This document shows positions 12,225 to 56,470 of a stretch of DNA of 64,000 nt, one piece after another (position 1 is the first letter of the stretch; every line of letters starts with the position of its first letter). Made by a program: the position numbers and the translations under genes. The DNA is from Blastocatellia bacterium (lineage in GTDB: Bacteria; Acidobacteriota; Blastocatellia; RBC074), in the NCBI GenBank assembly GCA_016789725.1, contig JAEUQN010000001.1:78588-142587 (forward strand), given 5' to 3'. The notes beneath the pieces were generated by a model. It was not told the origin of the DNA. It searched no databases and saw only the letters and a list, made by a program, of their open reading frames with translations.

Positions 12225-12225
12225 C

Positions 12226-15048: not shown

Positions 15049-15125
15049 GCGATAGATTTTGCCGAAAACAAAGTCTCGGTACTTGTTGATAACTACCGAG
15101 ACTTTGCTAAAAGCGAGTTGAGGAT

Positions 15126-15404: not shown

Positions 15405-15410
15405 GAATTT

Positions 15411-25984: not shown

Positions 25985-26434
25985 TTAATATTCAGGGCCA
26001 GCGACGTCAGCCGTTGTGAGTGTCGCCGCCGCTTCCATTGCCAAGTCAGTCAAATCGAGATGCCTCAATTCACCTTCGGAATTGATCACCCAGGCTTGTG
26101 CGTTGAGATACCGCATCTTTTCGTTACCGACTTCAAGGATGATAGCGACTTGTCCCTGTGCGAGCAATTGGCACAGTTCGCCCAACACGTCGGTATCTTC
26201 TTCGGTTTCTAGGTCCCAGCCATTATTCGAGAATCCACTTTCCTTGCTGTCGGACATCAGGAAGCCGACGCGATTCTCCTTTTCGATCAATTCCAGATTG
26301 TGTCGTTCGCAGAATGCTTGGAATGCTTCTGCATCGTTAACTTCAAAGTAATTGGATCGGAATTTTGCTTCGTAATTTGCCATAGGTGATTTTTGCTTCG
26401 AGTTTAGTGGCTGCCTTATCGCTCCGGCATCCAA
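25985..26434 (-). CDS. acidic hypothetical protein (149 aa)
   Basis: Overlaps the relaxase stop by 19 nt. Asp/Glu-rich. Possible DNA-mimic or anti-restriction candidate; this is inference only. Confidence 0.4.
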   Translation of the reverse strand: MDAGAIRQPLNSKQKSPMANYEAKFRSNYFEVNDAEAFQAFCERHNLELIEKENRVGFLMSDSKESGFSNNGWDLETEEDTDVLGELCQLLAQGQVAIILEVGNEKMRYLNAQAWVINSEGELRHLDLTDLAMEAAATLTTADVAGPEY

Positions 26435-28730: not shown

Positions 28731-29339
28731 TTATTTGGGTTCTTCGTTGAGAAGAAGTTTCCGATACTTACTGATTTGGGCTTCGACCTTCTCCAAACCG
28801 GCAGCAAGAATCTTTGGTGCTTCCGGGTCTTTGCCGAGTAAGGCTTGTGTGAGATGGGCCGTTAAGGTTGACTCGCCAGTCATCGCCAACAGAATCTTGC
28901 TGAGGTTGTTGTTCTGTTCGCGCAGGAGTTCAATTTGCGTGAGTAAGCGGGCGTTCTCATCTATGGTTACTTGCAGCGCGATCAAGTCTTTACTGAGCTT
29001 GTCGAATTGAATCCCATTCACATCCTGCGCATGCCTGCTCGATACCTGGATGTGTTCGACAAGCTCGCCGATGATTTCCCCTTTGAGGATCGCGATACTT
29101 TGTGGGGAGTTCGGGTTGAACTTTCCTTCGCGGATATCCTTGTACTCTTCGCCACGTTCTTCGGCCTTGATGCCAAGTTCAATGAGTCTGCGCAGGTATC
29201 GTTGCTCATTGTAGAGCGGCGACTTCCGCTTTTTCTCGTTCAAGTAGGCGCGCTGCTCTTTCTTGAGTCGGAGCGGAATCGGATTACTTTCAAATTCAGA
29301 GGGCTTCTTCTTCTTGAGCAAAGCAGGTTTCGATTTCAT
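28731..29339 (-). CDS. relaxosome accessory protein (MobC-like), 202 aa
   Basis: Lies immediately upstream of the relaxase on the same strand. Basic N-terminus (LRLKKEQRAYLNEKKRK) followed by a coiled coil. Confidence 0.4.
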   Translation of the reverse strand: MKSKPALLKKKKPSEFESNPIPLRLKKEQRAYLNEKKRKSPLYNEQRYLRRLIELGIKAEERGEEYKDIREGKFNPNSPQSIAILKGEIIGELVEHIQVSSRHAQDVNGIQFDKLSKDLIALQVTIDENARLLTQIELLREQNNNLSKILLAMTGESTLTAHLTQALLGKDPEAPKILAAGLEKVEAQISKYRKLLLNEEPK

Positions 29340-29972
29340 ACAATTCGTCGCACCTTTCTGGAAAAATTCGCCGAGGAGGCAAACTGGAAATATCCTTACT
29401 TGTGGAATGAGCTAGACGATTGTGGCTGCGGCAATTAACGTGCCAGATTATACTTGTATAACTTGTTATCGCCGGAAATTTACCTCACGCAATTGGTTGC
29501 AATGTTTCGGCTTACACGCTGTTTCGGAGAACTTTGCGAATTCCTTCCTGCGCCCACCGCCGAAATACCCCAACCATTCCCAAAGAACGAAGACTTGATG
29601 GCATTGTCAGAGGCACGGACGGAAGCACGGCGAAGAGAAAATCCACAGGGGAGAGGCAAAGACGAAGGGGGCAAAGCTCATTCGGCAGACCGTTCAGGTG
29701 GCTCGATGGAGGAAGAACGCTCAAACGGTGATTGACGGATGAAGGACAGTGCTGGCTGTCAACGCGAGGGTGCTTATGGCTCAAGCCGAATTATCAAAGA
29801 GCGAGATGCAGGGACGATGAGGCGCATTCCACTCTGATTTATTCCTGACGTGACATGGAAGCGGGAAGAAAGAGGGAGGGGTTTACGAAAGGAAAAAGAA
29901 AAGGCGGTGATCCGAAGACAACCGCCGAAAGACAAGGAGTATTGAGATGCGAAGAACACAACGATATGAACC

Positions 29973-29981
29973 GTAAAAACC
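29973..29981 (-). promoter_or_regulatory. GT[AG]AAAACC motif instance 1
   Basis: ccGTAAAAACCaa. It lies between the DUF4326 stop and the mobC-like gene. Confidence 0.3.
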
Positions 29982-29987
29982 AAAGCT

Positions 29988-30353
29988 TCACAGTTTGTCA
30001 GTTTCGAGGAGCCAAAGGATGGCCGCCTTGATGATGTCGCAGTGACAAGGTTGCGGGACACACCAGCAAAAAAGGGAAACGGGGTTGCCGTCTTTGACGA
30101 TGCGCGCGATGCGAAAGAGTTCGTCGTAGGCTGCTTGTCCGTTGAGTCGGTCGCAGGGTTGGTGGTTGAGCGCGCGCCAAAGGTCTTGTCGGAAAAGTTG
30201 GATGGCTTGATCACGATTGCCATCTTTTCCGAGGACAAATGGGTTGCCAAGAGGAGAAGCAGACAGGGCAGACATTTTGCGACCGCAGTAAATGTGTTTG
30301 GGGTTATGAGGATTGGGACGTTGGGATTTGCAGTTGTAGATTGAGATAGTCAT
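29988..30353 (-). CDS. DUF4326 domain protein (121 aa)
   Basis: YCGRKMSALSASPLGNPFVLGKDGNRDQAIQLFRQDLW matches the DUF4326 signature (GNPF...G...R..AI..F). GGAGG lies 4 nt upstream of the ATG. Confidence 0.55.
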   Translation of the reverse strand: MTISIYNCKSQRPNPHNPKHIYCGRKMSALSASPLGNPFVLGKDGNRDQAIQLFRQDLWRALNHQPCDRLNGQAAYDELFRIARIVKDGNPVSLFCWCVPQPCHCDIIKAAILWLLETDKL

Positions 30354-30385
30354 GCAGCCTCCGAAAGAACGTGGGAGTACTGGCA

Positions 30386-30394
30386 GTAAAAACC
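30386..30394 (-). promoter_or_regulatory. GT[AG]AAAACC motif instance 2
   Basis: caGTAAAAACCgg. It is 33 nt upstream of the DUF4326 ATG. Confidence 0.4.
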
Positions 30395-30533
30395 GGAGGC
30401 GTGAGAGGAAAGGCGCTGGGGAATAGCGTGCGGAATGCAGAATAAAGAGTGATGCGGTAACGGGGTGTGATTCTGGATGGGCGATTTTGGATTTTGGATT
30501 CGGGGAATCCGAGCAAGCCGCGAATAACTGCTC

Positions 30534-30568
30534 AAAAAAAGAGGCGACCCAACCGAAGCCGGATCGCC
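30534..30568 (-). terminator. Rho-independent terminator (11-bp stem, UUCG tetraloop, U7 tail), copy A
   Basis: The minus-strand transcript reads GGCGAUCCGGC-UUCG-GUUGGGUCGCC-UCUUUUUUU. It is 57 nt downstream of the PEP-CTERM-like gene. Confidence 0.6.
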
Positions 30569-30624
30569 AGTGAAAGAAAGGAGATTATGAAGCAATGGTC
30601 TACCTTCAGTAAAAAACCGAAGGC

Positions 30625-30894
30625 TTATGGACGGTTCCGTTTCTTGAGCAAGGACGCGATGCCAGCAAGACTGGAGCCTAAGAGGAGAAGGCTTACAGAT
30701 TCAGGAACGTTGGCTTGGGGAAGCTTGGCGAAGAACTCTTGTTGATCCAGGTTTCTGTCCGCCGGGGTAATGAGGCCGACACCAGCGGTGGGCGCGTTGG
30801 AGTAAGCAACGGAGCGGTTGAGCCAGGTGTTGGTGTCAGCTCGAGAGAGAAGTGAAAAGAAGGAGAGCAGAGTGAGAATGGTGAACAGTTTCAT
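30625..30894 (-). CDS. small secreted protein with PEP-CTERM-like C-terminus (89 aa)
   Basis: Signal peptide MKLFTILTLLSFFSLLSRA. C-terminus VPESVSLLLLGSSLAGIASLLKKRNRP, i.e. P-E-x followed by a TM segment and a basic cluster. Confidence 0.4.
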   Translation of the reverse strand: MKLFTILTLLSFFSLLSRADTNTWLNRSVAYSNAPTAGVGLITPADRNLDQQEFFAKLPQANVPESVSLLLLGSSLAGIASLLKKRNRP

Positions 30895-31185
30895 GGGAAT
30901 TACTGGTAAGAAAAAGGGCGGCTGAAAACCAAACAAGGAAAGTTGTTTTGACCTGCTTGACGGCTTCAGTGACTGGATCAGACTGGATCAAGGCTTTGGT
31001 AGAAACGAGATTCGCCCATACCAGCTTGCGCCGCCGGGAAAAGGGGCAAGCTTTCGTAGAAGTCGCGGTTGGGCGCGCCGAGACGCCAAAGGGTTTCGGG
31101 TTCCGCCAGCAAGAAGGTGTCATCGTCAACAGGGAAGGTGTTTTGTGGTTCAACCCAGAGATGGAAGCGATCGGGGGGATGTTGG

Positions 31186-31383
31186 TTAGCGGGCATGCGC
31201 GTCACCCCCGAACAAACGATAGGCGATGTCGGATAATTCAACCGAGACACATTCGCTACAGATGACTTCACCGAAATCGGCGTCAACGAAGTGTTTGCCG
31301 CGCGTGACGAGGTGTTCTTCGCCGCAGTTAGGACAGACGTGGGATTGGTTACTGGTCGGGAAAAATTGAATTGAAACGGACAT
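31186..31383 (-). CDS. small zinc-ribbon protein (65 aa)
   Basis: CPNC..17 aa..CSEC. Confidence 0.35.
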   Translation of the reverse strand: MSVSIQFFPTSNQSHVCPNCGEEHLVTRGKHFVDADFGEVICSECVSVELSDIAYRLFGGDAHAR

Positions 31384-31465
31384 AGTTACTCCTGATGGTG
31401 GATTTGAGATGGCGGATTTTCGAGAGACGAAACCCGAAGCTGTGAAAGACGCTTAGATAGAAACA

Positions 31466-31474
31466 GTAAAAACC
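31466..31474 (-). promoter_or_regulatory. GT[AG]AAAACC motif instance 3
   Basis: caGTAAAAACCgg. It is ~83 nt upstream of the Zn-ribbon gene. Confidence 0.4.
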
Positions 31475-31585
31475 GGAAACGTGATTGGGAGGGGGCTTGC
31501 TTGAGTAGGAAGAGTGACGAGGTTGTGTTTGGCAGGCAAGGTAATGACGTTGCGTGTCAGGTATGAGTCCTTCTGGTTGGAATGC

Positions 31586-32452
31586 TCAATAGTGTTCGTG
31601 GAGGGTGGCTTCGATCAGAGCGAAGTTATCCATCGTCTTCAGGTGCAAGATAGCCTTAATGTGTGCGAAGAAGAATTTGACAGGTTTGCCGGCTTCGAGC
31701 AGCGAACGGGTCAAGTCGAGGGTATCGTCGTGTTTTGCGGGACGGCGAAATGCAACGTGATTCGTCTCGTCGTAGAGCGCAAGCCCGAAGTTCGCACTGG
31801 AACAGGCGGCTTGCTTGGTGGCCACGAAGAAGTCTGCTCCAAATTCCGCTGGCACAGGTACGGTCGTGAAGTTCCCGTGATTGATGAGCGCTCTATCCCC
31901 AACGTGATAGAGCGCCACTTCTGGGTAGCGTTCGTCGGCGATGAAGAGTTGGATGCGCGAACTGAAGCCTGCCTCATCAGTAAGCAGAAAACGGCCTTCC
32001 TGGTTGATGATGGTGGCGAGTGTCATTGCGATTCGCAAGGGAAGTTGGGTGATGGTCGGACTACCAAAACAGAAGACATTCATTGCTTTCGCCTTACGGA
32101 ACAGAACAGCGGCGAAGAAGTCGCCGCGCGTTCCATTGATCCAGATGTCCCAGCCGCGCCGTTGGTATTGTTCGATGAGTGGTGGGAGAGCGTCTTGAGA
32201 AGTGGCGTTGATGTACAAGTGATCGTATCCGGGTTCCAAGTCCCAGGGATGTCCGGCATTGATGTCAAGGTCTTGTTGGATCAGCGCTTCCTCTGAATCT
32301 CCCTTGGTTGCTCTGTGCGAGCGTCTTCGTGCTGGGTGCGGTTTAGAAAATGATGAGTTAGGAATTGGCAACTCCCTCCTGTTCCATGAAGGCTTGCAGT
32401 GGCCTGATGACTTGTGGATTGATGTCGCGCCGCTCGCGGATTTCTTGCGCAA
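31586..32452 (-). CDS. hypothetical protein (start uncertain, probably internal)
   Basis: The C-terminal ~200 aa look protein-like. The N-terminal part of the ORF overlaps the upstream 117-aa gene and looks non-coding. Confidence 0.4.
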   Translation of the reverse strand: MRKKSASGATSIHKSSGHCKPSWNRRELPIPNSSFSKPHPARRRSHRATKGDSEEALIQQDLDINAGHPWDLEPGYDHLYINATSQDALPPLIEQYQRRGWDIWINGTRGDFFAAVLFRKAKAMNVFCFGSPTITQLPLRIAMTLATIINQEGRFLLTDEAGFSSRIQLFIADERYPEVALYHVGDRALINHGNFTTVPVPAEFGADFFVATKQAACSSANFGLALYDETNHVAFRRPAKHDDTLDLTRSLLEAGKPVKFFFAHIKAILHLKTMDNFALIEATLHEHY

Positions 32453-32711
32453 TGATCTTGGTGATTTGCGCTTCGTCAGGTGTTGCGGAGGGAAGCGGGG
32501 CGAAGAACGAATCTGCGATGTCCGGGCGGGACAGTGAGAAATCAGGGAATCGCTCTTGATAAAGAGTGAGCCGTTGCGCTACAAGACTGTATTCGTGCGC
32601 GAGGAATGTATCGCGTTCGTGCTGGGTACGCGTGAAGTGGGACTTGTAGTAAGCGGACTTCAGCGTAAGGAATGCCAGAATCGTAAAGAGATCAGACGGT
32701 TGCAGTTGCAT
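32358..32711 (-). CDS. hypothetical protein (117 aa)
   Basis: Intact ORF. Its start overlaps the GGDEF gene's stop by 20 nt. Confidence 0.4.
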   Translation of the reverse strand: MQLQPSDLFTILAFLTLKSAYYKSHFTRTQHERDTFLAHEYSLVAQRLTLYQERFPDFSLSRPDIADSFFAPLPSATPDEAQITKIIAQEIRERRDINPQVIRPLQAFMEQEGVANS

Positions 32712-33228
32712 AAAGAGACTCCTGCTTACGTTGTTGTTTGCGGAAATACATCGCGTCGTCCGCGTCGCTCAGGGAACAGCCGATACCACCAGAGATGCAA
32801 ACGCCAAGCCGTTGGACTTCCGGGACGTGGGCAATCAATTGATCAAAGCGGATTTCCGCCCTGCGGCGAAACGCCTCGGCGATTTCCTTTGGCACCAAGC
32901 AAACAAATTCGTCGCCGCCCAACCGAAAGACACGACGACAATGAAATTCAGCCGCAGTACAAGCCAGTGATTCCGCGACAGTACGCAACAAGCCATCGCC
33001 CGTTTTGTGTCCGAGCGTGTCATTGACGGCCTTGAATGAGTTCACGTCAAAGAGGACAACGACGAATCCTTCAGCGAAAGCGGCGGGAAAAGCAGCTTCG
33101 AGTGCGCGGCGATTGCCGATTTGGGTCAGAGGATCGGTATAGGCTGCCTGGATGGCGTTCTTGCGGCGCTCGGCCAGTTCAGGGGAAATGAAATCCGCAA
33201 TGCGAGCTCGTGTTTGATCGAGAATCAT
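32692..33228 (-). CDS. standalone GGDEF-domain diguanylate cyclase (~178 aa; start at MILDQTR)
   Basis: RLGGDEFVCLV with an intact GGDEF motif. DVNSFKAVNDTLGHKTGD is present. No sensor domain. Confidence 0.6.
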   Translation of the reverse strand: MILDQTRARIADFISPELAERRKNAIQAAYTDPLTQIGNRRALEAAFPAAFAEGFVVVLFDVNSFKAVNDTLGHKTGDGLLRTVAESLACTAAEFHCRRVFRLGGDEFVCLVPKEIAEAFRRRAEIRFDQLIAHVPEVQRLGVCISGGIGCSLSDADDAMYFRKQQRKQESLYATATV

Positions 33229-33287
33229 GTTGTAACTCTTTCGGCATAGAGAACGAGTTGTTCGGCCGTGGCAGTGGGGTACGGGCG

Positions 33288-33296
33288 GTAAAAACC
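33288..33296 (-). promoter_or_regulatory. GT[AG]AAAACC motif instance 4
   Basis: cgGTAAAAACCgg. It is ~60 nt upstream of the GGDEF start. Confidence 0.4.
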
Positions 33297-33489
33297 GGGC
33301 GCATCGCGCGCAAATCAAATGGCAAAGGGCAGAAAGCAGAAGGGAGACATGGTGTTGTTTGCCTTATTGTGAGGCGGGGATTGCGGAGGGCGGAATGAGG
33401 AAGAATTGTCTGTGAAACAGAAAGGGCGACCGCGTGGGAAAGGGACAGCCGCCCAAGAGGGGGTACGAAATGTTAGATCATTGCTTGTG

Positions 33490-33798
33490 TTAGTTGCGCG
33501 TGAGGTTGGCCGAGAGCCGCGCGATGGCGTCATCGGACATCTCGCTGGCAGCGTTCAAGACGTCGGTGAAGGAGAAGTCGGCTCTGACGTAGGAGGTGGT
33601 AGGTGGCTTGCCGGGATCAGTGACTTGAACGACGGCAAGTCCGAGCCAATAAGGATCAAGAAGGATCACTTCCTCAGAGGGCGTTGTGATGGTTTCGCCT
33701 GCTTGAAACAATCGAACCGAGCAGTGGCTATGACAACGATTCAGTTGGACGGGCAGCCCGGCCAACAGGGCGTGCAGTACGGTCTGCGCTTTGGACAT
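33490..33798 (-). CDS. hypothetical protein (102 aa)
   Basis: Intact ORF co-oriented with its neighbours. Confidence 0.3.
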   Translation of the reverse strand: MSKAQTVLHALLAGLPVQLNRCHSHCSVRLFQAGETITTPSEEVILLDPYWLGLAVVQVTDPGKPPTTSYVRADFSFTDVLNAASEMSDDAIARLSANLTRN

Positions 33799-33840
33799 TG
33801 AAACTCCAGATTGATAGTGGTGGTTGGAAAGGGAAGGGAA

Positions 33841-34152
33841 TTAGCCGACGCGACGTCCGCCGCATGTGTCGGGATGATTGCGGACAACCATACCTTTTGC
33901 CTCAATCCAGGCCTGGGCTTCTTCGTCGGTCAGATTGTTGCCATCGTTGCTTGTCAGCGTCTGGAACAAATTGGTAGCCAGAAAAATTTCGCCGTTGTGA
34001 AGCGTGATGTAGAAGTCCCCTGGAAATTTGGGTGTGGATTCAATGGACGCGACTTGCTGGCGGGTGATTTCCCAACAGTTGCCAGTCGGGGAATAGAGGC
34101 CGACGACCCTGGTTTGCAATGCGAAGCTGATAGGAGGGGGTGAGTTCTGCAT
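33841..34152 (-). CDS. hypothetical protein (103 aa)
   Basis: Intact ORF co-oriented with its neighbours. Confidence 0.35.
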   Translation of the reverse strand: MQNSPPPISFALQTRVVGLYSPTGNCWEITRQQVASIESTPKFPGDFYITLHNGEIFLATNLFQTLTSNDGNNLTDEEAQAWIEAKGMVVRNHPDTCGGRRVG

Positions 34153-34253
34153 ATGAAATTCCTGCGAGAGAATAACGGAAAGTGAACAAAAGAAGAAACC
34201 ACGTTGGATTCTGAATTTAGAGATCTGGAGAAGGCGGTGTCAAAAGCCTTCCG

Positions 34254-34288
34254 AAAAAAAGAGGCGACCCCGCCGAAGCAGGATCGCC
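34254..34288 (-). terminator. Rho-independent terminator, copy B (32/35 nt identical to copy A)
   Basis: The minus-strand transcript reads GGCGAUCCUGC-UUCG-GCGGGGUCGCC-UCUUUUUUU. Confidence 0.6.
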
Positions 34289-35059
34289 GAGAGAAGAACG
34301 CGTGTTTTTTAGGAGAGAGACTTGGGTTCCTGCGCCACGCCAGCGAACCTTGGGCCTGATCACGCTGCCGAACCCCCTGCGGAGACAACCGACTCCGGCT
34401 TGTTCGGTGCGTCTGGTACGCGCGATGGCGCAGGAAGAGGAAGCGCAGAGAGGGGCGGTTTCGGCGCAAAGAAATGTTTCCGAAACGAAATGTCGCCGTG
34501 TGGGAGACGTTGCGCTTTGACAAAGAAGCCACTACGCCGCGCCCATCGTTCCAGCACGACCATCCTTGGGTTGTGTTCTTTGGACAAGTTGGCCTCCATC
34601 GTTGTGGCGTGCCGAGAGGCCGTGGGTGGCCGTCCGGCACGCCGTGCTTGACCGAGCAAACGTGATCGGTCAAGGCCGGGGCACGAGAGCGGGAGTTGGT
34701 GTTGGCTCTCGTTCGGGATAGGGAAGAAAGCACACGGAAACGGTCGGGTTCTGATCGAAGGCTCAGCTTGCGTGGTCGTGCAAGCCAGTCTTGTAGCAAC
34801 AAAGCAACGTCCCCAGTTGATTGTTGCGCCGACCGCTTCCGTCTACGCTCCGCCGTAAGCAGGAGTTAAACTTACAGCAGCGCCGTCAGAGGCAGCGCGG
34901 CTGGCATCGCTTGGAAGACCGCACAAGGCCAGCCGCTTTCGTGGTGGATGTCGTTGAAGGTTGAGAGATGAGTTGCCGTACAGCTTGCCGGAATCCATCT
35001 TGTGTGATTGCTAGTTGGGTTAGAGGCGAATCCAGCCGCCTAGCAATTTCTTATCATCC

Positions 35060-35068
35060 GTAAAAACC
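35060..35068 (-). promoter_or_regulatory. GT[AG]AAAACC motif instance 5
   Basis: ccGTAAAAACCct. It sits at the head of the ORF-less 34.3-35.0 kb segment. Confidence 0.35.
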
Positions 35069-35369
35069 CTACTGGACGGAGATGGTCACGGTGTTGGCGG
35101 GCTTTTCTTGGATGACAATTTCTAGCGGGTAATTTCCCGTCATGACTAGGGAAGTGAGCCTTTTGATTGGGTACGACCCGCGAGAGTGCGTACGACGAAA
35201 ACAATCAGAAACGGGAATGTGAGTAGCGCCACCCCGACGGTGACAAGCACAAGAAAAAGTGCCTGCGCGAGCTGAAGAAGACGATTCATACGAAAAGAAC
35301 AGCCCAGCCAAGGGCGAATCCTGACTGGGCGGTTGTGGTTCCAATGGTTGAAGCGCGAAAGGCTGGGAA

Positions 35370-35777
35370 TTAGCTGCGCGGCACTTTGCCGACAAACTGG
35401 ACGCGGAACGCGTCGAGTCGGTTGGAGTGGTATTCCTGGCCGTCCTGGCCTTCTTTCGTGATGTTGATGGATAAGCGACCATCTTGCACCGCGATCCGGG
35501 AGCCGGGCTTAGCCGCTTGCATCAGCTTGACGACACCCGGATTGCTGGAAACGATTTCGACCCACTGGCCCTTCTCGTTACGTTCGGCTTGTTTGTCATT
35601 CAGCTTTTCGCCTTTGACTGGACGGCGGGTGACGACCCCCAGAAACGCACAGTAACTGTTGCCGTTTTTGTCTTTGCCGAAGTGGATGAGGGATTCTTTG
35701 TTCGTCGGTTGAACGACGGTGACAATTGTGTTGGTGACGTTGAAGGAGGGAAGCGGATTGGTGTTTGCGTTTGCCAT
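35370..35777 (-). CDS. hypothetical OB-fold-like protein (~135 aa; start MANANTNPLP)
   Basis: Protein-like only from the internal Met onward. Adjacent to ssb. OB-fold assignment is tentative. Confidence 0.35.
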   Translation of the reverse strand: MANANTNPLPSFNVTNTIVTVVQPTNKESLIHFGKDKNGNSYCAFLGVVTRRPVKGEKLNDKQAERNEKGQWVEIVSSNPGVVKLMQAAKPGSRIAVQDGRLSINITKEGQDGQEYHSNRLDAFRVQFVGKVPRS

Positions 35778-35859
35778 AGAGAGAGTAGACCTTTCAGTGA
35801 TTTGGTTGTCTTGAAGTGAGGTGAACGCACGCTGCGTTCGGAACAAGGATTTATTCCCT

Positions 35860-35868
35860 GTGAAAACC
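35860..35868 (-). promoter_or_regulatory. GT[AG]AAAACC motif instance 6
   Basis: ctGTGAAAACCac. It is ~85 nt upstream of the 135-aa OB-like gene. Confidence 0.35.
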
Positions 35869-36000
35869 ACGCGCGAAGCGCGCCTTCGGCGTTGGTTGTA
35901 AACGTGCGCAAAACTCTTTTGCAGCAGTGACAGGAATAGAAAAAGCCAGGACGCAGTGAATCCGAATCCTGACTTTTGCGGATGATAGGGAAGGGGGCAC

Positions 36001-36453
36001 CTAGAACGGAATATCCTCTGTATCGTCGGTGCCTTGCAACTCCGGCGCTTGCTCTGTGGCAGGTGCGGCAGTGCTGGTTCCATTGCCGTTTTTGCGGAAC
36101 AGGATTGAGAACTTGGTACCGGTCATGCGAATTTCGTTGTAGACCGTGCCTTCTTTCTCGTTGGCGTTTTCGTACGCATCGGTCGCGTCAATGCGCACCC
36201 GGTCGCCTTTGCCTACGCCGCTCTTGGCGACCGCATTGGCCTGTCCGCCCCAGAAGGTCACGATGCGGACGGAACGACGTTGTTGGTTGCCGCGCACGAC
36301 GTTGCTGATGACTTTCAGGTCAACGACCGCGCGGTCTTCACCGTTGACTTTGACGGTACGAACTTCCGGCGTGACGGCAAGGTTGGCTTCAAAGCTGATC
36401 TGTTGGTAATCGGAGAATTGGCGAGTTGCATTACTGTTGTTGGTTTCTGACAT
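36001..36453 (-). CDS. ssb: single-stranded DNA-binding protein
   Basis: Acidic C-terminal tail ending DDTEDIPF, matching the canonical SSB D-D-D-I-P-F. 150 aa with a Gly/Gln-rich linker. Confidence 0.75.
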   Translation of the reverse strand: MSETNNSNATRQFSDYQQISFEANLAVTPEVRTVKVNGEDRAVVDLKVISNVVRGNQQRRSVRIVTFWGGQANAVAKSGVGKGDRVRIDATDAYENANEKEGTVYNEIRMTGTKFSILFRKNGNGTSTAAPATEQAPELQGTDDTEDIPF

Positions 36454-36577
36454 GGTGGGAAAATCCTTTCAAATGGTTGTGATTGATTCGGGGAAACATA
36501 CAAGGCGGTCTGCACCTGTTATGCCAGTGTCGCTCAAGCGAGGAAGCTTTTTCCTGTCGAGCGATTTTGTATTGCCT

Positions 36578-36586
36578 GTAAAAACC
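36578..36586 (-). promoter_or_regulatory. GT[AG]AAAACC motif instance 7
   Basis: ctGTAAAAACCca. It is ~125 nt upstream of ssb. Confidence 0.4.
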
Positions 36587-36679
36587 CAGAGGCTTTGTGA
36601 GGTGAACTATTGGGAGAAGCTGTGACTTTGGCTTTTGGATTGGGAAGCCATTATGCCGCGACCAACCTCGAATCGAAGC

Positions 36680-37048
36680 TCATTTCACCGCGTACCCCTG
36701 ACGTGCTTGCTGGTACGGACGAATTGCTCTCTGGATCGAATTGAAGACGCGCTCCGAATATCGCTTACGGCGTTCCGTTGCCTTTGTTGCAAACTGCGGA
36801 AAGTCATGCAGGATGTCCGTGATCTGCCCGGCTACCTCTTGCATGCCTGCAAGCTTCAGTATCTGATCGAACCAGAACTGAGGTTTGTACTGATTGACGC
36901 GAACCGTGTGTGCCATCTTGAGCACTGGCTGACTGGCAGCCGTCATGGCAGCTTCCTCTTTGGCGAGAAGTTGATGCAGTTGGTTGAGAACGTAGGCATT
37001 CTCGATGCGATCCTGCCCGGTAACATCCTTGTAACTTGCAGCGTTCAT
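36680..37048 (-). CDS. hypothetical protein (122 aa)
   Basis: Intact ORF with a GT[AG]AAAACC motif 52 nt upstream. Confidence 0.35.
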   Translation of the reverse strand: MNAASYKDVTGQDRIENAYVLNQLHQLLAKEEAAMTAASQPVLKMAHTVRVNQYKPQFWFDQILKLAGMQEVAGQITDILHDFPQFATKATERRKRYSERVFNSIQRAIRPYQQARQGYAVK

Positions 37049-37099
37049 AGCGGTGACTCCTGATCGTGAAATGTTGTTTGAGGCAGTGGGCTATGAACC

Positions 37100-37108
37100 G
37101 TGAAAACC
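37100..37108 (-). promoter_or_regulatory. GT[AG]AAAACC motif instance 8
   Basis: ccGTGAAAACCcg. It is ~52 nt upstream of the 122-aa gene. Confidence 0.4.
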
Positions 37109-37335
37109 CGGCGGCTACGCCGCAACGCAAACGGCAAATCTCAAAATGCAAAAGGGCGGAAGACGGTTTGGGCTTTATTGGGTTTGGGAAATGGGGCGGA
37201 GTGAGGACTTCACGAGATTGGAATAGCAAGCGACAGCGGATTTCGTGTAGGAGCGGGCGGAAAGCGGCTGAACCCTCAGCACATATCGCTTTTCGGGATG
37301 TCCGCTTTCTCTAATTAGCGATGAAGGTCAATGAT

Positions 37336-37668
37336 TCAATCTGCGCGCTTGTCATCATTCCACGCCTGCTCTGCATCCTCGTCGGATTCAAACCGCGCGC
37401 AAGCATCGCATCGTTCGATCACACCGCTTGCCGCACGCAAAACACCGGGTACACCACTGTGCAAGATTTCTTGCGGGTCTTCGCAAAGACAGACAAAGAC
37501 AATCGCAGATTTCGGTTGAACCTCGCCTTGGAGTCTCCATTCAGTGAGGTGTGTTTGCGCGGCGGCTTCGGTCTCGAACTGACGCGCGAAGAAGGGACTG
37601 CTTGTCCACGTTTGGTTGCCGTAGACAAATTCAGTCTCGGAGCCAGTGGTGCGAGTGATGACGTACAT
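37336..37668 (-). CDS. hypothetical protein (110 aa)
   Basis: Intact ORF. Confidence 0.35.
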   Translation of the reverse strand: MYVITRTTGSETEFVYGNQTWTSSPFFARQFETEAAAQTHLTEWRLQGEVQPKSAIVFVCLCEDPQEILHSGVPGVLRAASGVIERCDACARFESDEDAEQAWNDDKRAD

Positions 37669-37683
37669 CCGCTCTTCCTTTCG

Positions 37684-38385
37684 TTATATGGTCTGCAAAA
37701 AGTCACCCGGTTCTTCTTCCGAGAGCGCATCAGCCAGATAGCCCGTTGGGAATTGCGCTTTCAAGTGGGCCGCAACCAAGAGTCGAATGCCTTCTTGGAG
37801 CTGTCGGATTTGCGCTTCGAGTTCGGCGATCTCCGGTGCGATCTCAGCGGCGGCAGCTTGCCACGACGACTGCGCAGCACGACACTCGTTTTGTTGTTCG
37901 GTGATCTGCGCAAGCGCGACAGGAACGTCGTACTGTTCTATCGTGCGGTATTCGTCGGCGAGGATGGCGGCGTATTTGCGAAAGGCTTCGGGCCAAGTGC
38001 TGGCGGAGCGCGCTTCTTCTGCGGCGGCCTCGCGCAACTCGCGCCGACGGCGTTCCTGCGCTTCGTACTGACGGTCTTGCAGGTCGTTTAGTTGTTGGCG
38101 GAGGTCGGTAGCTTCGGCTTGTGCATAGCGCGCGGTATCGTGGAGAGGTTGATAATTTTTACTCATCAGCAGAGCCCTCTTGAAGTTGTTCGTTCGCGGC
38201 ATCCCTTGCACGTTGCGTTTGTAACGTGCGATTTCCTTCGCACCATGAACAGCCCCCATGATTGCGACGGCTTCTATCGTGGCGTTTGGAACCGCGATAG
38301 CGTTTCCGGCGCTCTTTGCCGGAGGCGATGGCTTTGTCGAGTGGCATAAGTTACTCCCAGAGTGAAAAGCAAAGTTTGTCGGCAA
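37684..38385 (-). CDS. coiled-coil hypothetical protein (start uncertain; likely MSKNYQ at 38166)
   Basis: Heptad-like Glu/Arg/Gln/Ala-rich segment. AGAGGG lies 9 nt upstream of the internal Met. Confidence 0.4.
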   Translation of the reverse strand: MPTNFAFHSGSNLCHSTKPSPPAKSAGNAIAVPNATIEAVAIMGAVHGAKEIARYKRNVQGMPRTNNFKRALLMSKNYQPLHDTARYAQAEATDLRQQLNDLQDRQYEAQERRRRELREAAAEEARSASTWPEAFRKYAAILADEYRTIEQYDVPVALAQITEQQNECRAAQSSWQAAAAEIAPEIAELEAQIRQLQEGIRLLVAAHLKAQFPTGYLADALSEEEPGDFLQTI

Positions 38386-38551
38386 CCGCTTCCAGGGCGG
38401 TCTTGAGATTCGTCGCGGCTTCGAACGTGATTCCGTCAGCGATAGTTTCGCGGCGCGTAGTATGGCTGGCGTCTTGCCAGTAGACGTTTAGGAAGTGCGT
38501 CCCGTCAGCGTTTTGATAGATAGCGAATGAGGGTGGTCTTGTATCAGGCAT
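38351..38551 (-). CDS. small hypothetical protein (66 aa)
   Basis: Intact ORF. Confidence 0.3.
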   Translation of the reverse strand: MPDTRPPSFAIYQNADGTHFLNVYWQDASHTTRRETIADGITFEAATNLKTALEAVADKLCFSLWE

Positions 38552-38557
38552 CGGTAA

Positions 38558-39052
38558 TTATCCTTTCTGAAATAGTCCCACTCGCAAGGCGGGGTAGTTG
38601 GCGGCGAAACGCTCAATGCCTCGTTCGTATTCCGCCCAATTTCCTCCGGCGAGGCCACAGCCAATCCCGAATGGCAACGCGACCGACGTGATGCCTTCGA
38701 TCTTGCCCACCAGCATCAACGCATACTTGAATGCGCCCAGCCGATGCCGTGTGTTGTCGGTGTTGCGCGGATCGGGATTTGGCTTGCCCGGCGCAATCTG
38801 CCCGTACAAATTGATGACGGGATCGTGAACGGAAATCCGTGCGTACTGGTCGCGGTGGTTGAGCTTGTCCGTGCGCTCGGTATAGACATTGGCCTGTGGA
38901 TACTTAGCGAAGATGGCTGCCGCCACGCCCTTCGCATACGTCGAAAGGCAATTCGTTTGATGGCAGATGTATTGGAAGCTGTAGTTGTCCACGGCGCGCA
39001 ACAAATCGTCGTGGATGATTTCGAGATTTGACAGTGTGGACTTTGTGGTCAT
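38558..39052 (-). CDS. macro-domain (ADP-ribose binding/processing) protein
   Basis: ICHQTNCLSTYAKGVAAAIFAKYP resembles the macro NAAN...GGGV..AI motif. SVALPFGIGCGLAGGNW resembles the second Gly-rich macro motif. Confidence 0.55.
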   Translation of the reverse strand: MTTKSTLSNLEIIHDDLLRAVDNYSFQYICHQTNCLSTYAKGVAAAIFAKYPQANVYTERTDKLNHRDQYARISVHDPVINLYGQIAPGKPNPDPRNTDNTRHRLGAFKYALMLVGKIEGITSVALPFGIGCGLAGGNWAEYERGIERFAANYPALRVGLFQKG

Positions 39053-39110
39053 AGTGTTTCCTGAATGACAGGCAACAGATTACAAGCAGAATGATCAAGC
39101 ACCATTCCAT

Positions 39111-40763
39111 TTATCGTTCTGACCTCCGCGCTTCAATCAGCTTTCTCTTCAACCCTGTGTGGCGTATCGGCACGCGCTTGATCGCATCAAAGAAGGCTTT
39201 CTTCTGGCCAACGAAGACGACGTGCTTCTCAGCGCGGGTCATCGCCGTGTAGACCAGCGCGCGAATCAACATCCGGCTCATGGAGCTATGAATCGGAATG
39301 ACCACACACGGCCACTGAGAGCCTTGCGATTTGTGGATCGTGATCGCAAACGCATACAGCAATTGATTCCAGGTGTCAGTGGAGTAGTGGACGCGCTTGC
39401 CTTTCTCGAATTTGACTTCCAGCGCATCACCGACAGCGTGCTTCACTTCTCCAACTTCACCATTCATCACACCCAACTTGCGGTTGTTCTTGGTGTGAAT
39501 CACTTTGTCGCCTGTGCGGAAGTTCAACGAGCCAGCAACCGACGTGCCGCCATCCCCGATGCCGCGCAAGATGTCATTCAAGTTGTTTGTTCCTACCGTG
39601 CCTTTCTTCATCGGCACGAGACATTGAATCTGGCTGATCGGATCGTAGCCAAGCCGTTTCGGTAACGATTGGTTGATGATGAGCGGCATCATCTTCGCAA
39701 TCTCCTCGGCAGACTCGATTTCGATGAAGTACGAATCCGATTTCTCCGCGCCCGGTTTCGCAAAGCGAATATCATCATAGCGGCCTTCCCGGATTGCGGC
39801 GGCGTTGCGTGCAACCCAACTCGATTCGTCCTGCCGAAACACTTTCGTGAGTCGAACGATTGCGACCGCTTTGCTTTCAATGAGGTCTTTGAGCACTTGC
39901 CCCGCATCCACCGAGGCCAATTGTTCAGGATCACCGACGATGATGAGCCGGGTGCGCGACGTGCATGCCAGACAAAGCTGCGCCATCATCCACGTGTCCA
40001 CCATTGAGAACTCATCCACGATCAGCACATCGCCAACGACTGGAAAGAGGAAGTTCCAAACGTATTTCTTGACCGCGCCGCAGTAGTACATCAAGCGATG
40101 GAGTGTTTCCGCGGATCGTCCCGTCGCTTCCGCCATGCGCTGGGAAGCGCGCCCTGTCGGTGCGGCGCAATGCACCAACAAGCCTTGCTGCCGAAACAAT
40201 TCGAGGATCGCATTCACCGTCGTCGTCTTGCCTGTGCCCGGATAGCCTGCCAGGATCAAAACGCCTTCGGCTGCCGCCGCGCGTACCGCCTCTTGTTGCT
40301 CGTCGGAAAGTGGTTTGTTGTAGGTGCGAAGAAACGCTTCGACAGTGGCGGCTTCAATCGGTTTGCAATTCCTACCAATGGACTTCAACCGCTCCGCGAT
40401 CATCGTTTCGGTTTGGAAGGTGGCGGGTGTGAAAATGTAGTTGTCCGTGTCTCGCACCAACTCGCCGCGTGCGATCACTTCCTCCAGCGATGCTTGCACG
40501 TCTTCTGGTTTGGCGGCATAGCGGGCGCATAGTTCGGCGACCAGCTTGTCTTGTGGAAAACATGTATGGCCTTCCTTCCGGGCGCGGTCTAAGGCTTCGA
40601 GGAAACGAGTAGTGTGGGGATGAACCGGAAGGGGGGTGCGAAGCAGCGAGTAAAGCTGCAACAGCCGGGCAATGAACGCGACGGCTAAGACTGCTTTCAG
40701 CTTGTGTGGTTGTATCCGAATTCGCATGATAGCAACTCCTGATGAATGACTTTCCACGATCAT
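39111..40763 (-). CDS. RecD-like SF1 DNA helicase (plasmid TraA / Dda-like)
   Basis: Walker A LAGYPGTGKTT. VLIVDEFSMVD. IIVGDPEQLASV. TIHKSQGSQW. YTAMTRAEKHVVFVG. The true start may be Met13 at 40727. Confidence 0.7.
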   Translation of the reverse strand: MIVESHSSGVAIMRIRIQPHKLKAVLAVAFIARLLQLYSLLRTPLPVHPHTTRFLEALDRARKEGHTCFPQDKLVAELCARYAAKPEDVQASLEEVIARGELVRDTDNYIFTPATFQTETMIAERLKSIGRNCKPIEAATVEAFLRTYNKPLSDEQQEAVRAAAAEGVLILAGYPGTGKTTTVNAILELFRQQGLLVHCAAPTGRASQRMAEATGRSAETLHRLMYYCGAVKKYVWNFLFPVVGDVLIVDEFSMVDTWMMAQLCLACTSRTRLIIVGDPEQLASVDAGQVLKDLIESKAVAIVRLTKVFRQDESSWVARNAAAIREGRYDDIRFAKPGAEKSDSYFIEIESAEEIAKMMPLIINQSLPKRLGYDPISQIQCLVPMKKGTVGTNNLNDILRGIGDGGTSVAGSLNFRTGDKVIHTKNNRKLGVMNGEVGEVKHAVGDALEVKFEKGKRVHYSTDTWNQLLYAFAITIHKSQGSQWPCVVIPIHSSMSRMLIRALVYTAMTRAEKHVVFVGQKKAFFDAIKRVPIRHTGLKRKLIEARRSER

Positions 40764-40776
40764 TTTTTTACTGACG

Positions 40777-40785
40777 GTGAAAACC
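40777..40785 (-). promoter_or_regulatory. GT[AG]AAAACC motif instance 9
   Basis: cgGTGAAAACCga. It is 14-50 nt upstream of the RecD-like helicase start. Confidence 0.4.
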
Positions 40786-41950: not shown

Positions 41951-43429
41951 GTGCAGTTGTACGCCCGTGCCTTGCGCGCAAGGGAAGTTCTCCCCTGTCG
42001 CCGTAAATTCAAGAGGTTAAGCATGGATTCCAAGAAGTCTTTTCCTGGGATCACTTCACTGTCTCTTTGGTGGAGTGTTCTCACTATAAGTTGTCTCTTT
42101 GTCAGTTTCCCATCTTCAGGGCAGGGGCAACCGCCTGCGCCGAATCTTTCCCCAAACGAGGGAGCAGAGCGCCAAACGTTTCGTAGCGTCACGGAAGTCG
42201 TGACAGAGCAAACCGTGAATGCCCGACAGGGGCTTTCAGCGACGGAACTAATTACACGCGCGCTGACTTCCAACCAGGAGTTGGCGGCAGTGCGCCTGGA
42301 GCTTGAACGGGCACGCGCACGAGTACAACAAGCCGGATTGCGCCCCAATCCAACATTGGATTTTGAGCAGCAACGCGGCGTGTTCAATTCGCCGGGCGAA
42401 CGTGTAACGACAGTCGGCATTTCCGTCCCAATCGAAATGGGCGGCAAACGAGCGCGGCGGCTGACGCTGGCACAGGCCGAACTCGAAGTCGCGCAAGCTG
42501 AAGTTGCGGAACGGGAGCGTAGATTAGCGGCGGAAGTGCGCGCCGCCTATGTGGAAGCGATGGCTGCGCAGCGTGAACTCAGCATCACGGAAGGACTGAA
42601 CCGTCTCGACACCCAAACCGTGCGCGTCGTAGAAGCGCGCGTGACCGAAGGCGATGCCGCGCCGCTCGAAGTGAATCTGTTGCGCGTGGAAGTTGACCGC
42701 TTGCGGGCGCGGCGGGCACTTATCGAGGGACGCTTGCAGGCCGCCTTGCTGAAGCTCAAAACTTTGGCTGGCATTCCGCCCAGCGATGTCTTGCAAGTAC
42801 GAGAAGAACTGGCGCAACCCCTGCTGCGGGAACCACCGGCTGCGGTGGAAGCAGCAGTAGAGATTGCGTTGCGCACTCGTCCCGATCTACGGCTGGCGCG
42901 CTTGCTGGAAGAAGCGGCACAAGCCGGATTGAAATTAGCGCAAGCCCAGGCCCGACCAGACATCATCGTCTCGGCCCGCTACGGCACGAGTCAAAACAGC
43001 TTTGATGAAACGCCGATTGGCTTTCTGACCGACCGCGACAAACTCTTCTCGGTCGGCGTTTCCATTCCCTTACCACTTTTCAATCGCAATCAGGGAGCAG
43101 TGGCGGAAGCCGCAACGACCATCACGCAGGCGCAGCGTCGCCGCGAATTTGTGGAATCCGTCGTGCGCTCGGAGGTCAGCAGCGCGCTCGCGCGCTACCA
43201 AGCGGCTCAGGCCGCGCTCACCACCTTTGAGCAAGGCGTCATCGTGCGCTCGAACGAGAACATTCGCGCCATTCGCGCCGCCTACGATGTGGGCGCATTC
43301 CGCGTGACGGATCTGATTGCCGAACAGCGGCGGCTCCTGGATTCTCAGCGCGAATACACCGAGGCGCTCACCGAACGGTATCGCGCGCTGGCGGATTTTC
43401 AGTCGGCACTGGGAGGCAACGAGAAATGA
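41951..43429 (+). CDS. outer membrane efflux protein (CzcC/CusC/TolC family)
   Basis: Signal peptide. Two repeated helical OMF-like halves. First gene of an OMF-MFP-RND triplet. The start is probably MDSKK at 42023. Confidence 0.7.
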   Translation: MQLYARALRAREVLPCRRKFKRLSMDSKKSFPGITSLSLWWSVLTISCLFVSFPSSGQGQPPAPNLSPNEGAERQTFRSVTEVVTEQTVNARQGLSATELITRALTSNQELAAVRLELERARARVQQAGLRPNPTLDFEQQRGVFNSPGERVTTVGISVPIEMGGKRARRLTLAQAELEVAQAEVAERERRLAAEVRAAYVEAMAAQRELSITEGLNRLDTQTVRVVEARVTEGDAAPLEVNLLRVEVDRLRARRALIEGRLQAALLKLKTLAGIPPSDVLQVREELAQPLLREPPAAVEAAVEIALRTRPDLRLARLLEEAAQAGLKLAQAQARPDIIVSARYGTSQNSFDETPIGFLTDRDKLFSVGVSIPLPLFNRNQGAVAEAATTITQAQRRREFVESVVRSEVSSALARYQAAQAALTTFEQGVIVRSNENIRAIRAAYDVGAFRVTDLIAEQRRLLDSQREYTEALTERYRALADFQSALGGNEK

Positions 43430-48017: not shown

Positions 48018-48058
48018 CAGAAATAAAAAAATCGCCTCTGACTGGAAAGGAGAATTGA

Positions 48059-48940: not shown

Positions 48941-48987
48941 CCACTTCAACTTGCAGTAGTGCCTAAGCCTCAACACGAAGGAGGAAT

Positions 48988-49506: not shown

Positions 49507-49524
49507 AAGAAAGCAGGATGGCTA

Positions 49525-52684: not shown

Positions 52685-52696
52685 GAAACACATCCC

Positions 52697-53302: not shown

Positions 53303-53348
53303 GAGTCTGGCGATTCCCAATCAACATTATTTACAGGAGGAACTCTCA

Positions 53349-53843: not shown

Positions 53844-53867
53844 GCACAAGCGGAAGCCTCTCATCTG

Positions 53868-54511: not shown

Positions 54512-54527
54512 ATGAAGCTAAAACATT

Positions 54528-56469: not shown

Positions 56470-56470
56470 A

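Follow-up and report, generated by a model that had tools for sequence, protein, structure and literature searches.

A co-oriented gene block beside a MobL-type relaxase gene in a Blastocatellia contig: a candidate establishment region of a conjugative element

Gene content and orientation of the block

The subject of this analysis is a block of genes at positions 29988-40763 of a 64,000-nt stretch of Blastocatellia contig JAEUQN010000001.1; the whole stretch, and not the block, is called the window, and all coordinates are window positions. The window is part of a conjugative element, and the block lies beside the gene of its MobL-type relaxase (Table 1). From the gene list and the translations of open reading frames (ORFs), 19 genes were counted in the block, one of them doubtful, and all credible ones are on the minus strand; an earlier note on this DNA had claimed about 18. 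The block is limited by a RecD-like helicase gene at one end and by a DUF4326 gene at the relaxase end, and 650 bp of non-coding DNA separate it from the gene of a 202-amino-acid (aa) accessory protein. The proximity to the relaxase claimed in the same note holds: the block is the direct neighbor of the relaxase operon, and a conserved candidate origin of transfer (oriT), flanked by inverted repeats, lies between the two. The minus-strand run is not specific to the block, as it extends through the relaxase gene and five further genes to position 19484, comprising beyond the block the accessory gene, the relaxase gene, four small genes and the gene of a 1259-aa protein of no assigned function. 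Co-orientation is therefore not diagnostic of a leading region.

Comparison with sister contigs (about 94% identical) gave ratios of non-synonymous to synonymous differences (pN/pS) of 0-0.28 for most ORFs of the block, demonstrating purifying selection. By this measure the coding status of the 62-aa and the 110-aa ORFs is ambiguous; the sister contig L040 carries equivalent gene calls for the four small ORFs of 37336-38551. The 103-aa and 102-aa ORFs (33490-34152) lay outside this comparison, having no comparator sequence.

The helicase predicted in the earlier note is borne out by its Pfam domains; it is also matched by the RecD-type models of PADLOC and has a pN/pS of 0.09 in comparison with the sister contig. 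Although its ORF runs to 40763, the start is probably the ATG at 40727, because the sister protein has 538 aa. The first of two single-stranded DNA (ssDNA)-binding candidates, SSB1, had been described as a canonical SSB ending in DDTEDIPF: the C-terminal tip is there, while the protein is divergent, scoring 20.2 bits against a Pfam cut-off of 26, with the SSB of D. radiodurans (1se8, E=0.0018) as its best PDB match. SSB1 differs from its counterpart in L040 by 14 synonymous and no non-synonymous substitutions, and a metagenome scan with it returned a single unrelated distant match only. The second protein with an oligonucleotide-binding (OB) fold, SSB2, was found as claimed, with a score just under the cut-off and a weak PDB match to SSB. 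Since both proteins remain under the PF00436 cut-off, we call them SSB-like. In relatives, canonical SSB genes occupy the corresponding position. The OB match of SSB1 and its tip thus provide the ssb gene that is typical of leading regions, albeit below the cut-off. The helicase and the SSB-like proteins more plausibly have roles in DNA processing or establishment than in anti-defense.

The clearest functional theme of the block is the chemistry of NAD and ADP-ribose, represented by macro, SLOG and DUF4326 proteins and, in relatives, by NADAR. The macro protein gave no Pfam match as a single sequence, whereas a profile of 31 homologues matched the PDB entries 2fg1/2afc (E=1.4e-20), 5e3b (6.5e-20), the DarG macro domain 5m3i (8.5e-14) and TARG1 4j5r (1.4e-13); the conserved loop G-C-G-L-A-G-G-x-W is present. 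The macro domain proposed in the earlier note is thus recovered by the profile and not by the single-sequence search, and by the profile we assign the protein to the TARG1/DarG class of ADP-ribose-related domains. A DarT partner is lacking, and PADLOC matches the protein to DarG marginally (E=7e-4). In phage-like contigs, homologues of the macro protein adjoin NADAR and PARP genes. In addition to the domains named in the earlier note, a two-part ORF carries a Rossmann-like SLOG (YpsA/DprA/LOG) fold in its C-terminal 165 aa (31589-32083), which was identified by a fold search; a SLOG-family profile had no match among PDB sequences. The DUF4326 assignment was confirmed by Pfam well above the cut-off. 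We consider macro, SLOG and DUF4326 (with NADAR in relatives) the best candidates for an anti-defense function, and not the anonymous small ORFs, which the earlier note had put forward as prime candidates and which have no family matches.

A repeated motif in the intergenic DNA

The repeated motif mentioned in the earlier note proved to be a 27-nt strand-specific element, GGTTTTYAC-nG-N4-TA-N6-tG(y)T. Its 17-nt core GGTTTTYACNGNNNNTA, allowing at most one mismatch, has ten matches on the minus strand, all within 29965-40785, while 0.22 are expected in the whole window. All ten copies are intergenic and lie on the coding strand: in seven cases a start codon follows after 41-133 nt, one copy stands at the head of an ORF-free segment of 0.8 kb, and two have a terminator hairpin within approximately 50-70 nt downstream. 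Five or six copies with the same orientation and arrangement were found in L006, a locus whose relaxase is only 63% identical to that of the window; none were found in more distant relatives. Hence one conserved sequence, retained in L006, precedes several separate operons, as do the EGeRS sequences discussed below.

Strong terminators had been claimed as well. Three hairpins followed by T-runs are strong (Table 1), two of them (34263-34288 and 30543-30568) being 91% identical over 35 nt, and the latter lies about 50 nt after the motif copy at 30617; the total of terminator-like sites (20) does not exceed the expectation from shuffled sequence (17.1).

The motif copy nearest the relaxase opens a conserved unit, in which it is followed by a leader (TCGTT..TTCTTyGCATCT..TACTCCT), the hairpin GGCGG..CCGCC and TTTTCTTTTT, ending in a T-run. 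Two L006 copies of this unit stand directly before a ribosome-binding site (RBS) and an ATG, and the hairpin is kept there with one compensatory pair. From its sequence the unit looks like a promoter with an attenuator-type leader. In the two motif-headed segments 30525-30617 and 29885-29981, the downstream hairpins are preceded by CUCCU-type pyrimidine tracts; these segments may specify short RNAs or attenuator leaders.

Known promoter classes were compared with the motif by hand. Sigma70 and sigma54 promoters were rejected on account of unfit spacings, extended -10 and extracytoplasmic-function (ECF)-type promoters being included in the comparison; an ECF-like reading (..YAC-N15-GyT) is conceivable, though it falls about 1-2 nt short. 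An integron attC-like site and a Frpo hairpin were ruled out by the lack of an inverted partner. Folding of ssDNA in a sliding window was unremarkable at the motif sites, and, taken with the missing inverted partner, this means that the motif is not a single-strand promoter of the Frpo type.

The ORF-free segment 34255-35052, present in a single copy, begins after the motif copy at 35068 and ends at the terminator 34288-34263. It is the only strongly structured segment (RNA fold z = -5.9 against 20 shuffles), and Rfam searches at gathering and permissive thresholds gave nothing relevant, there or elsewhere in the block. It is a candidate long non-coding RNA or, alternatively, a candidate structured ssDNA element. 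In L006, C-rich heptamers (CAGCACT/TCAGCACT) stand in tandem at 7600-7800, upstream of several motif copies and within the spacer on the oriT side; they may be binding sites.

The relaxase operon and a candidate oriT

The relaxase has the N-terminal catalytic Tyr and the histidine triad of MobL relaxases (Y20 and the motif H119..P125-H126-x-H128), the residues Y20, H119, N121, P125, H126 and H128 being invariant in nine homologues; an exact-protein look-up gave no record. The name mobC, given to the accessory gene in the earlier note, was not retained, as the protein has no Pfam match; its position fits a relaxosome accessory protein. The sole exact sigma54-type promoter consensus of the window (TGGCACGTTAATTGC), conserved in L006 as TTGGCACGCTAATTGC, precedes by 92 nt the accessory/relaxase operon, which may need an enhancer-binding activator. 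Part of the 1259-aa protein resembles the C-terminal region of longer relaxases (about 990 aa) in L002, L021, L028, L030 and others; this suggests that a domain has been split off in the present element.

In the non-coding stretch between the accessory gene and DUF4326, an imperfect 18-nt inverted repeat (29494-29511 and 29559-29576) flanks GGTGGGCGCAGGAAGGAATTCGC, whose complement is TTCCTG|C-like. This candidate core forms an island conserved between the window and L006 amid diverged non-coding flanks. An analogous AAAAATCGCGTGGGACAGGAT flanked by inverted repeats was found about 800 nt upstream of the relaxase gene in L002, L011, L021, L028 and L030, the repeat being perfect over 11 nt in L011; overall, the window and five distant relatives have a conserved non-coding core approximately 0.85-0.9 kb upstream of the relaxase gene, behind one or more accessory genes. 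The complement of AAAAATCGCGTGGGACAGGAT reads ATCCTG|T, so that in the distant subfamily an ATCCTG-like sequence lies on the template strand. We take this sequence to resemble those nicked in MOBP plasmids and at T-DNA borders, and on these grounds place the putative nick on the template strand. A location can thus be proposed for the oriT on which the earlier note had made transfer polarity depend, together with a presumed nick position inside it. The geometry is like that of pLS20, the MobL prototype, in which the template strand is nicked at an oriT 865 bp upstream of the relaxase gene, behind two accessory genes (PMC5313138); the corresponding values in the window are about 890 bp and one accessory gene.

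Strand-composition bias beside the candidate oriT

The GC skew of the coding strand at third codon positions is -0.40 in the oriT-proximal genes of the block (29988-34152), -0.15 in the distal genes and -0.03 in the genes on the relaxase side. Over whole genes, the skew in the proximal part ranges from -0.04 to -0.34; of the eight genes there, only GGDEF (-0.04) lies above -0.11. The coding strand of 29988-34152 is G-poor and C-rich, its purine content falling to 0.37, and the intergenic DNA is biased as well. The gradient is strongest beside the candidate oriT and declines from there. A similar bias was observed in L006 (about 2000-8000), where 1-kb bins reach -0.43 and the bias ends abruptly once the accessory and relaxase genes are reached; it was not seen in distant relatives. 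Deamination of C to T on the transferred strand (T-strand) was considered as a cause and rejected: third codon positions of the coding strand are depleted in A as well, hence the bias is not a simple deamination signature.

Related elements and gene turnover

The relaxase family was found in 35 loci, the majority of them labelled Acidobacteriota (Blastocatellia, Pyrinomonadaceae); five are labelled Heliobacteriaceae, Heliomicrobium or Clostridia, and one "uncultured bacterium". The sister contigs L005, L007 and L040 come from metagenome-assembled genomes (MAGs) labelled Heliobacteriaceae or Heliomicrobium, and these bin labels look inconsistent. L001/L006 is a Blastocatellia MAG contig. Strand counts in related loci were based crudely on the longest ORFs, a procedure unreliable for the window itself, and were used qualitatively only.

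In a subfamily of eight loci (L002, L011, L021, L024, L028, L030, L033, L049), a RecD-like helicase, SSB and DUF4326 are followed, all co-oriented, by an accessory gene and the relaxase. The minimal arrangement is that of L049: helicase, a 468-aa protein, SSB, DUF4326, a small minus-strand ORF, a 47-aa ORF, accessory gene and relaxase. The helicase gene is kept, co-oriented and upstream of the relaxase gene, in L021, L024, L033, L048 and L049. DUF4326 is the last or nearly the last co-oriented gene before the accessory and relaxase genes in L001, L002, L011, L024, L033 and L049; a minus-strand or small ORF may sit between DUF4326 and the accessory gene. In L048, whose helicase is 50% identical to that of the window, a single co-oriented run encodes DprA, a Macro-NADAR fusion, DUF4326 and a PEP-CTERM protein; L001 has NADAR and two DUF4326 genes. 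In the sister element L040, the sequence diverges after SSB1, which is followed there by a reverse transcriptase gene, and an insertion carries XisH/XisI (4866-5605). The content of macro, NADAR, SLOG and GGDEF genes differs between related elements. This synteny across the Acidobacteriota loci shows that the helicase/SSB/DUF4326 backbone is stable while the accessory content turns over rapidly. Two further insertions were observed: a Tn7-like TnsA/TniB/TniQ set lies between two SSB genes in L002 (1876-7471), and a TnpB (Cas12f-like) gene interrupts the related block in L048 (4623-6245).

Other genes of the block and its surroundings

The stand-alone GGDEF domain reported in the earlier note was found by Pfam with its motif intact (RLGGDEFVCL); it has no sensor domain and no visible RxxD I-site, and a homologue 73% identical to it is encoded in L006. 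For the Zn-ribbon protein of that note, a match was found that remains under the cut-off. A protein with a PEP-CTERM tail had not been listed there. The genes of 30625-31383 are conserved in L005, L007 and L006, and the PEP-CTERM gene also in L001 and L048. The remaining small proteins of the block matched nothing in Pfam, NCBIfam, PHROGs and PADLOC, apart from one protein with a weak PHROG match; there are no meaningful PHROG matches.

The best sigma70-like site of the region (TTGACA-18-TAAATT, 34243-34214) precedes the 103-aa and 102-aa ORFs. The doubtful 47-aa ORF directly after the SSB2 terminator may be a small membrane peptide or an artefact; it was considered as a hok-like toxin and rejected, as neither an RBS nor an antisense partner was seen.

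Besides the block and the relaxase operon, the window contains two cargo regions. The defense cargo, on the same element as the block, is a Druantia/DISARM-like hybrid. The metal and arsenic resistance cargo has a G+C content of about 58-60%, above that of the block. No tRNA genes were found. Megablast of the block against plasmid and phage collections gave no match, and these collections contain no close match to the DNA.

Table 1. Features of the block, the relaxase operon and the remaining window
Feature	Position	Strand	Remarks
Motif copies (first bases)	40785, 37108, 36586, 35868, 35068, 33296, 31474, 30617, 30394, 29981	-	27-nt element
RecD2-like superfamily 1B (SF1B) helicase	39111-40727	-	without N-terminal HHH domains; Pfam AAA_30 (1e-45), AAA_19, SH3_13, UvrD_C_2
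Stand-alone macro domain	38558-39052	-	TARG1/DarG/SCO6735 class, by profile of 31 homologues
66-aa ORF	38351-38551	-	pN/pS within 0-0.28
62-aa CxxC ORF	38159-38347	-	supported by sister-contig gene calls; pN/pS ambiguous
160-aa coiled-coil ORF	37684-38166	-	pN/pS within 0-0.28
110-aa ORF	37336-37668	-	pN/pS ambiguous
122-aa protein	36680-37048	-	own motif copy (37108); pN/pS 0.16; no family match
SSB1, divergent SSB	36001-36453	-	Pfam SSB below cut-off; tip DDTEDIPF
SSB2, SSB-like OB-fold protein	35370-35780	-	Pfam SSB 25.3 bits (cut-off 26); no acidic tail
Strong terminators	35330-35302, 34288-34263, 30568-30543	-	hairpin plus T-run
Hydrophobic 47-aa ORF, doubtful	35146-35289	-	directly after SSB2 terminator
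ORF-free segment	34255-35052	-	about 0.8 kb
103-aa ORF	33841-34152	-	no family match
102-aa ORF	33490-33798	-	no family match
Stand-alone GGDEF domain (diguanylate cyclase)	32692-33231	-	PF00990 4.9e-22, 78.8 bits (cut-off 23.8)
117-aa protein	32358-32711	-	precedes SLOG-containing ORF
SLOG-containing two-part ORF	31586-32356	-	SLOG fold in C-terminal part
Zn-ribbon protein	31186-31383	-	Zn_Ribbon_TF E=2e-5, under cut-off
ORF of about 70 aa	30978-31190	-	between Zn-ribbon and PEP-CTERM genes
PEP-CTERM-tailed protein	30625-30936	-	TIGR02595 16.9 bits (cut-off 16)
DUF4326 protein	29988-30353	-	PF14216 E=9.8e-18, 65 bits (cut-off 25); gene nearest candidate oriT
Conserved unit	29885-29981	-	motif, leader, hairpin, T-run
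Candidate oriT core	29494-29576		18-nt imperfect inverted repeat
Sigma54-type consensus	29431-29445	-	upstream of accessory/relaxase operon
202-aa accessory protein	28731-29339	-	no Pfam match
MobL-type relaxase	26416-28662	-	PF18555 47.5 bits (cut-off 28.5), residues 20-142
1259-aa protein	19484-23263	-	no assigned function
Defense cargo	5910-19463	+	2104-aa DruE-like helicase with MZB and DUF1822 domains, DpdE/DrmD-like SNF2 protein, DrmMI-like N6-methylase
Type IV coupling protein (T4CP)	1205-3457		T4SS-DNA_transf 8e-32; first gene of window
Metal and arsenic resistance cargo	41951-56941		CzcCBA-type efflux, ECF sigma factor, P-type ATPase, ArsC-like LMWPc, MIP channel, glyoxalase

Interpretation and alternatives

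The genes and their domains, the motif, the synteny and the composition of the block are observed directly. In our judgment they are best explained, with a probability somewhat above even, if the block serves as the establishment (leading) region in a MobL-type conjugative element, integrative or plasmid-borne, of Acidobacteriota of the Blastocatellia/Pyrinomonadaceae type. The relaxase would then nick the template (window plus) strand at an oriT situated at about 29.5 kb, in the stretch bounded by the accessory gene and DUF4326. A plus-strand nick near 29540 would direct transfer toward higher coordinates, so that the T-strand would enter 5' to 3' with DUF4326 first, the block ahead of everything else, the helicase gene closing the block and the relaxase operon last overall; by analogy, we infer that the block enters the recipient first, with the T-strand as the template of its genes. 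Approximately ten short transcription units, each under the 27-nt promoter- or operator-like element and some with a leader terminator, may be switched on jointly and transiently upon arrival, forming an "establishment regulon" like those of pLS20/p576, R388 and the IncP plasmids.

Three groups of products would be made at that time. Two SSB-like proteins, the DprA/SLOG-fold protein and the RecD2-like helicase could handle ssDNA and its conversion to the second strand. The variable enzymes of NAD and ADP-ribose chemistry (TARG1/DarG-class macro, SLOG, DUF4326, and NADAR in relatives) could undo ADP-ribosylation of the incoming DNA or destroy immune signals derived from ADP-ribose, and to judge from their domains an anti-defense role of these genes is plausible. 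The GGDEF and PEP-CTERM proteins and the small orphans would be host-modulating or unassigned. The nick site, the polarity, the timing of expression and every counter-defense activity in this outline are inferred.

The establishment-region reading, which was also that of the earlier note, is supported by the adjacency to the relaxase, the co-orientation, the ssb gene, the pLS20-like geometry, the backbone kept amid accessory turnover, the motif and its leader/terminator unit retained in L006, and the composition gradient, which peaks at the oriT-proximal end in the window and in L006. A number of observations weigh against it. No block protein matched an anti-restriction, anti-CRISPR or anti-SOS family (Ard, KlcA, Acr, PsiB) in Pfam, NCBIfam or PHROGs at E<=0.01, no methyltransferase is present, and no toxin-antitoxin gene was detected. 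No Frpo-like hairpin promoter was found in the block, so the claim that the genes are expressed early from the incoming single strand has no support here; the motif matches no nameable promoter type, and it is its position that suggests a promoter role. Both oriT and its nick site are putative, and the candidate core gave an unconvincing alignment with the oriT of pLS20; its inverted repeat encloses the putative nick instead of being located on the 5' side, and several relatives have this repeat in a weak form or not at all. In pLS20, moreover, the DNA upstream of oriT contains genes of the type IV secretion system (T4SS) and not establishment genes. The SLOG protein lacks G35 and D41, two near-invariant residues of its family, and may for this reason be non-catalytic. 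A simple anti-defense list has no place for a PEP-CTERM surface protein or a GGDEF cyclase, co-orientation is not block-specific, and uniform gene orientation agrees with a leading region only if the plus strand is the T-strand.

Several of these points would be accommodated if the block were a module for DNA processing, replication or maintenance, in which the helicase and the SSB/DprA-like proteins serve rolling-circle replication or donor-side transfer, the other genes are ordinary cargo and the motif is the element's own promoter or repressor site. We consider this explanation rather unlikely. It agrees with the finding that helicase, SSB and DUF4326, and not the putative anti-defense genes, are most conserved, with the continuation of the minus-strand run through the relaxase operon and with the lack of known anti-defense families. 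In other relaxase families a RecD-like helicase is fused to the relaxase, and a separate helicase accordingly suits a donor-side role. On the other hand, Macro, SLOG, DUF4326 and NADAR are domains of conflict systems found in phages, a high turnover of genes, as seen here among close relatives, typifies arms-race islands, and by adjoining oriT opposite the relaxase the block corresponds to the operational definition of a leading region. The two readings are not mutually exclusive. It is distinctly less probable that oriT lies elsewhere or that the other strand is nicked, in which case the block would be transferred late and its likeness to leading regions would be coincidental. The putative nature of the nick, the poor alignment with pLS20 and the atypical repeat geometry of the candidate core would allow this, and a second oriT might be situated close to the T4CP or T4SS genes, outside the window or at its edge; yet a non-coding core is conserved at a constant distance upstream of the relaxase gene across the family, the ATCCTG-like sequence of the distant subfamily lies on the template strand, pLS20 sets a precedent for nicking of that strand, and in both the window and L006 the composition gradient stops sharply at the candidate oriT. 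We regard as highly improbable the idea that a fragment of a prophage or another mobile element was inserted beside the relaxase gene by chance. The phage-like contigs carrying macro homologues, the many small orphans and the one weak PHROG match point in that direction, but there are no structural or replication genes of phages, no phage DNA match and no meaningful PHROG matches, and many independent Acidobacteriota contigs show the backbone in linkage with the relaxase.

The establishment-region reading could be extended to a dedicated first-entry system, combining a private 27-nt promoter, strong, graded selection at synonymous sites and counter-defense by reversal of ADP-ribosylation. That all three apply jointly seems unlikely to us. 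In such a system, a factor encoded by the element, or an unusual sigma factor of the host, would read the 27-nt promoter in front of about ten mini-operons and of small and long non-coding RNAs. The T-strand would be rich in purines and G and the transcripts poor in G, which might protect or streamline the ssDNA or maximize early translation. Counter-defense would consist in reversing, for example, a DarT-type modification of ssDNA and in degrading ADP-ribose signals, and not in classical anti-restriction.

Significance and comparison with known systems

To our knowledge, no conjugative element of Acidobacteria, a dominant phylum in soil, has been characterized experimentally. The block provides a testable map for one, with a candidate oriT, a regulatory motif, a conserved helicase/SSB/DUF4326 backbone and a variable set of ADP-ribose-processing genes that may reveal which immune systems limit gene flow in this phylum. 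If macro, SLOG, DUF4326 and NADAR proteins counter NAD/ADP-ribose immunity during conjugation, a theme known mainly from phages would extend to conjugative transfer. The motif could serve to find further establishment genes among related elements, an approach already taken with pLS20/p576, and the graded strand-composition bias, if general, could serve as a sequence-only indicator of transfer polarity.

In the IncW plasmid R388 (ArdK) and in IncP plasmids (KorA/KorB), many short establishment operons have promoters that share one repeated operator, resulting in a burst of expression upon entry. The present motif differs in being asymmetric, and no cognate regulator was identified for it, the conserved Zn-ribbon protein being only a guess.

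The closest regulatory analogue is the establishment regulon of the pLS20/p576 family, which is defined by the repeated sequences EGeRS1 and EGeRS2 (Val-Calvo et al. 2021, PMC8708921). Both systems have a relaxase of the MobL family, several short operons each behind one conserved sequence, structures in some copies that would stop read-through, and variable, mostly unassigned genes along with ssb and anti-restriction-type functions. They differ in that EGeRS1 measures 420-750 bp and the motif 27 nt, no sequence relationship being expected, and in that the operons of pLS20/p576 are dispersed, whereas here they form one contiguous block beside oriT, with a structured segment of about 0.8 kb in a single copy.

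Macro, NADAR, SLOG and DUF4326 domains are fused or co-occur in viral NAD+/ADP-ribose counter-defense (Iyer et al. 2022, PMC9503650). The same combination is found in the block and its relatives, and L048 shares the Macro-NADAR fusion, DprA/SLOG and DUF4326 with the viral sets; the macro profile also matches the macrodomain of the antitoxin DarG as well as TARG1 structures. Unlike the virus-borne sets, the genes of the block are carried by a conjugative element, are separate and not fused, have no DarT partner and are known from their sequences alone.

The leading regions of conjugative plasmids and of integrative and conjugative elements (ICEs) carry ssb and anti-defense genes in one orientation (Samuel et al. 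2024, PMC11541004). The block is like these islands in lying on the side of oriT away from the relaxase, in having one orientation, with the predicted T-strand as template, and an ssb gene, and in its many small, variable and uncharacterized genes with turnover. It differs from them in the absence of detected ArdA/B/C, Acr, PsiB, orphan methyltransferase and toxin-antitoxin genes, in having a short linear 27-nt motif per unit instead of Frpo/ssi-type hairpin promoters, in candidate counter-defense centred on ADP-ribose/NAD chemistry, and in its Acidobacteriota host and MobL-type relaxase. The block is thus a further example of the known establishment or leading regions of plasmids, with some unusual regulatory and compositional features.

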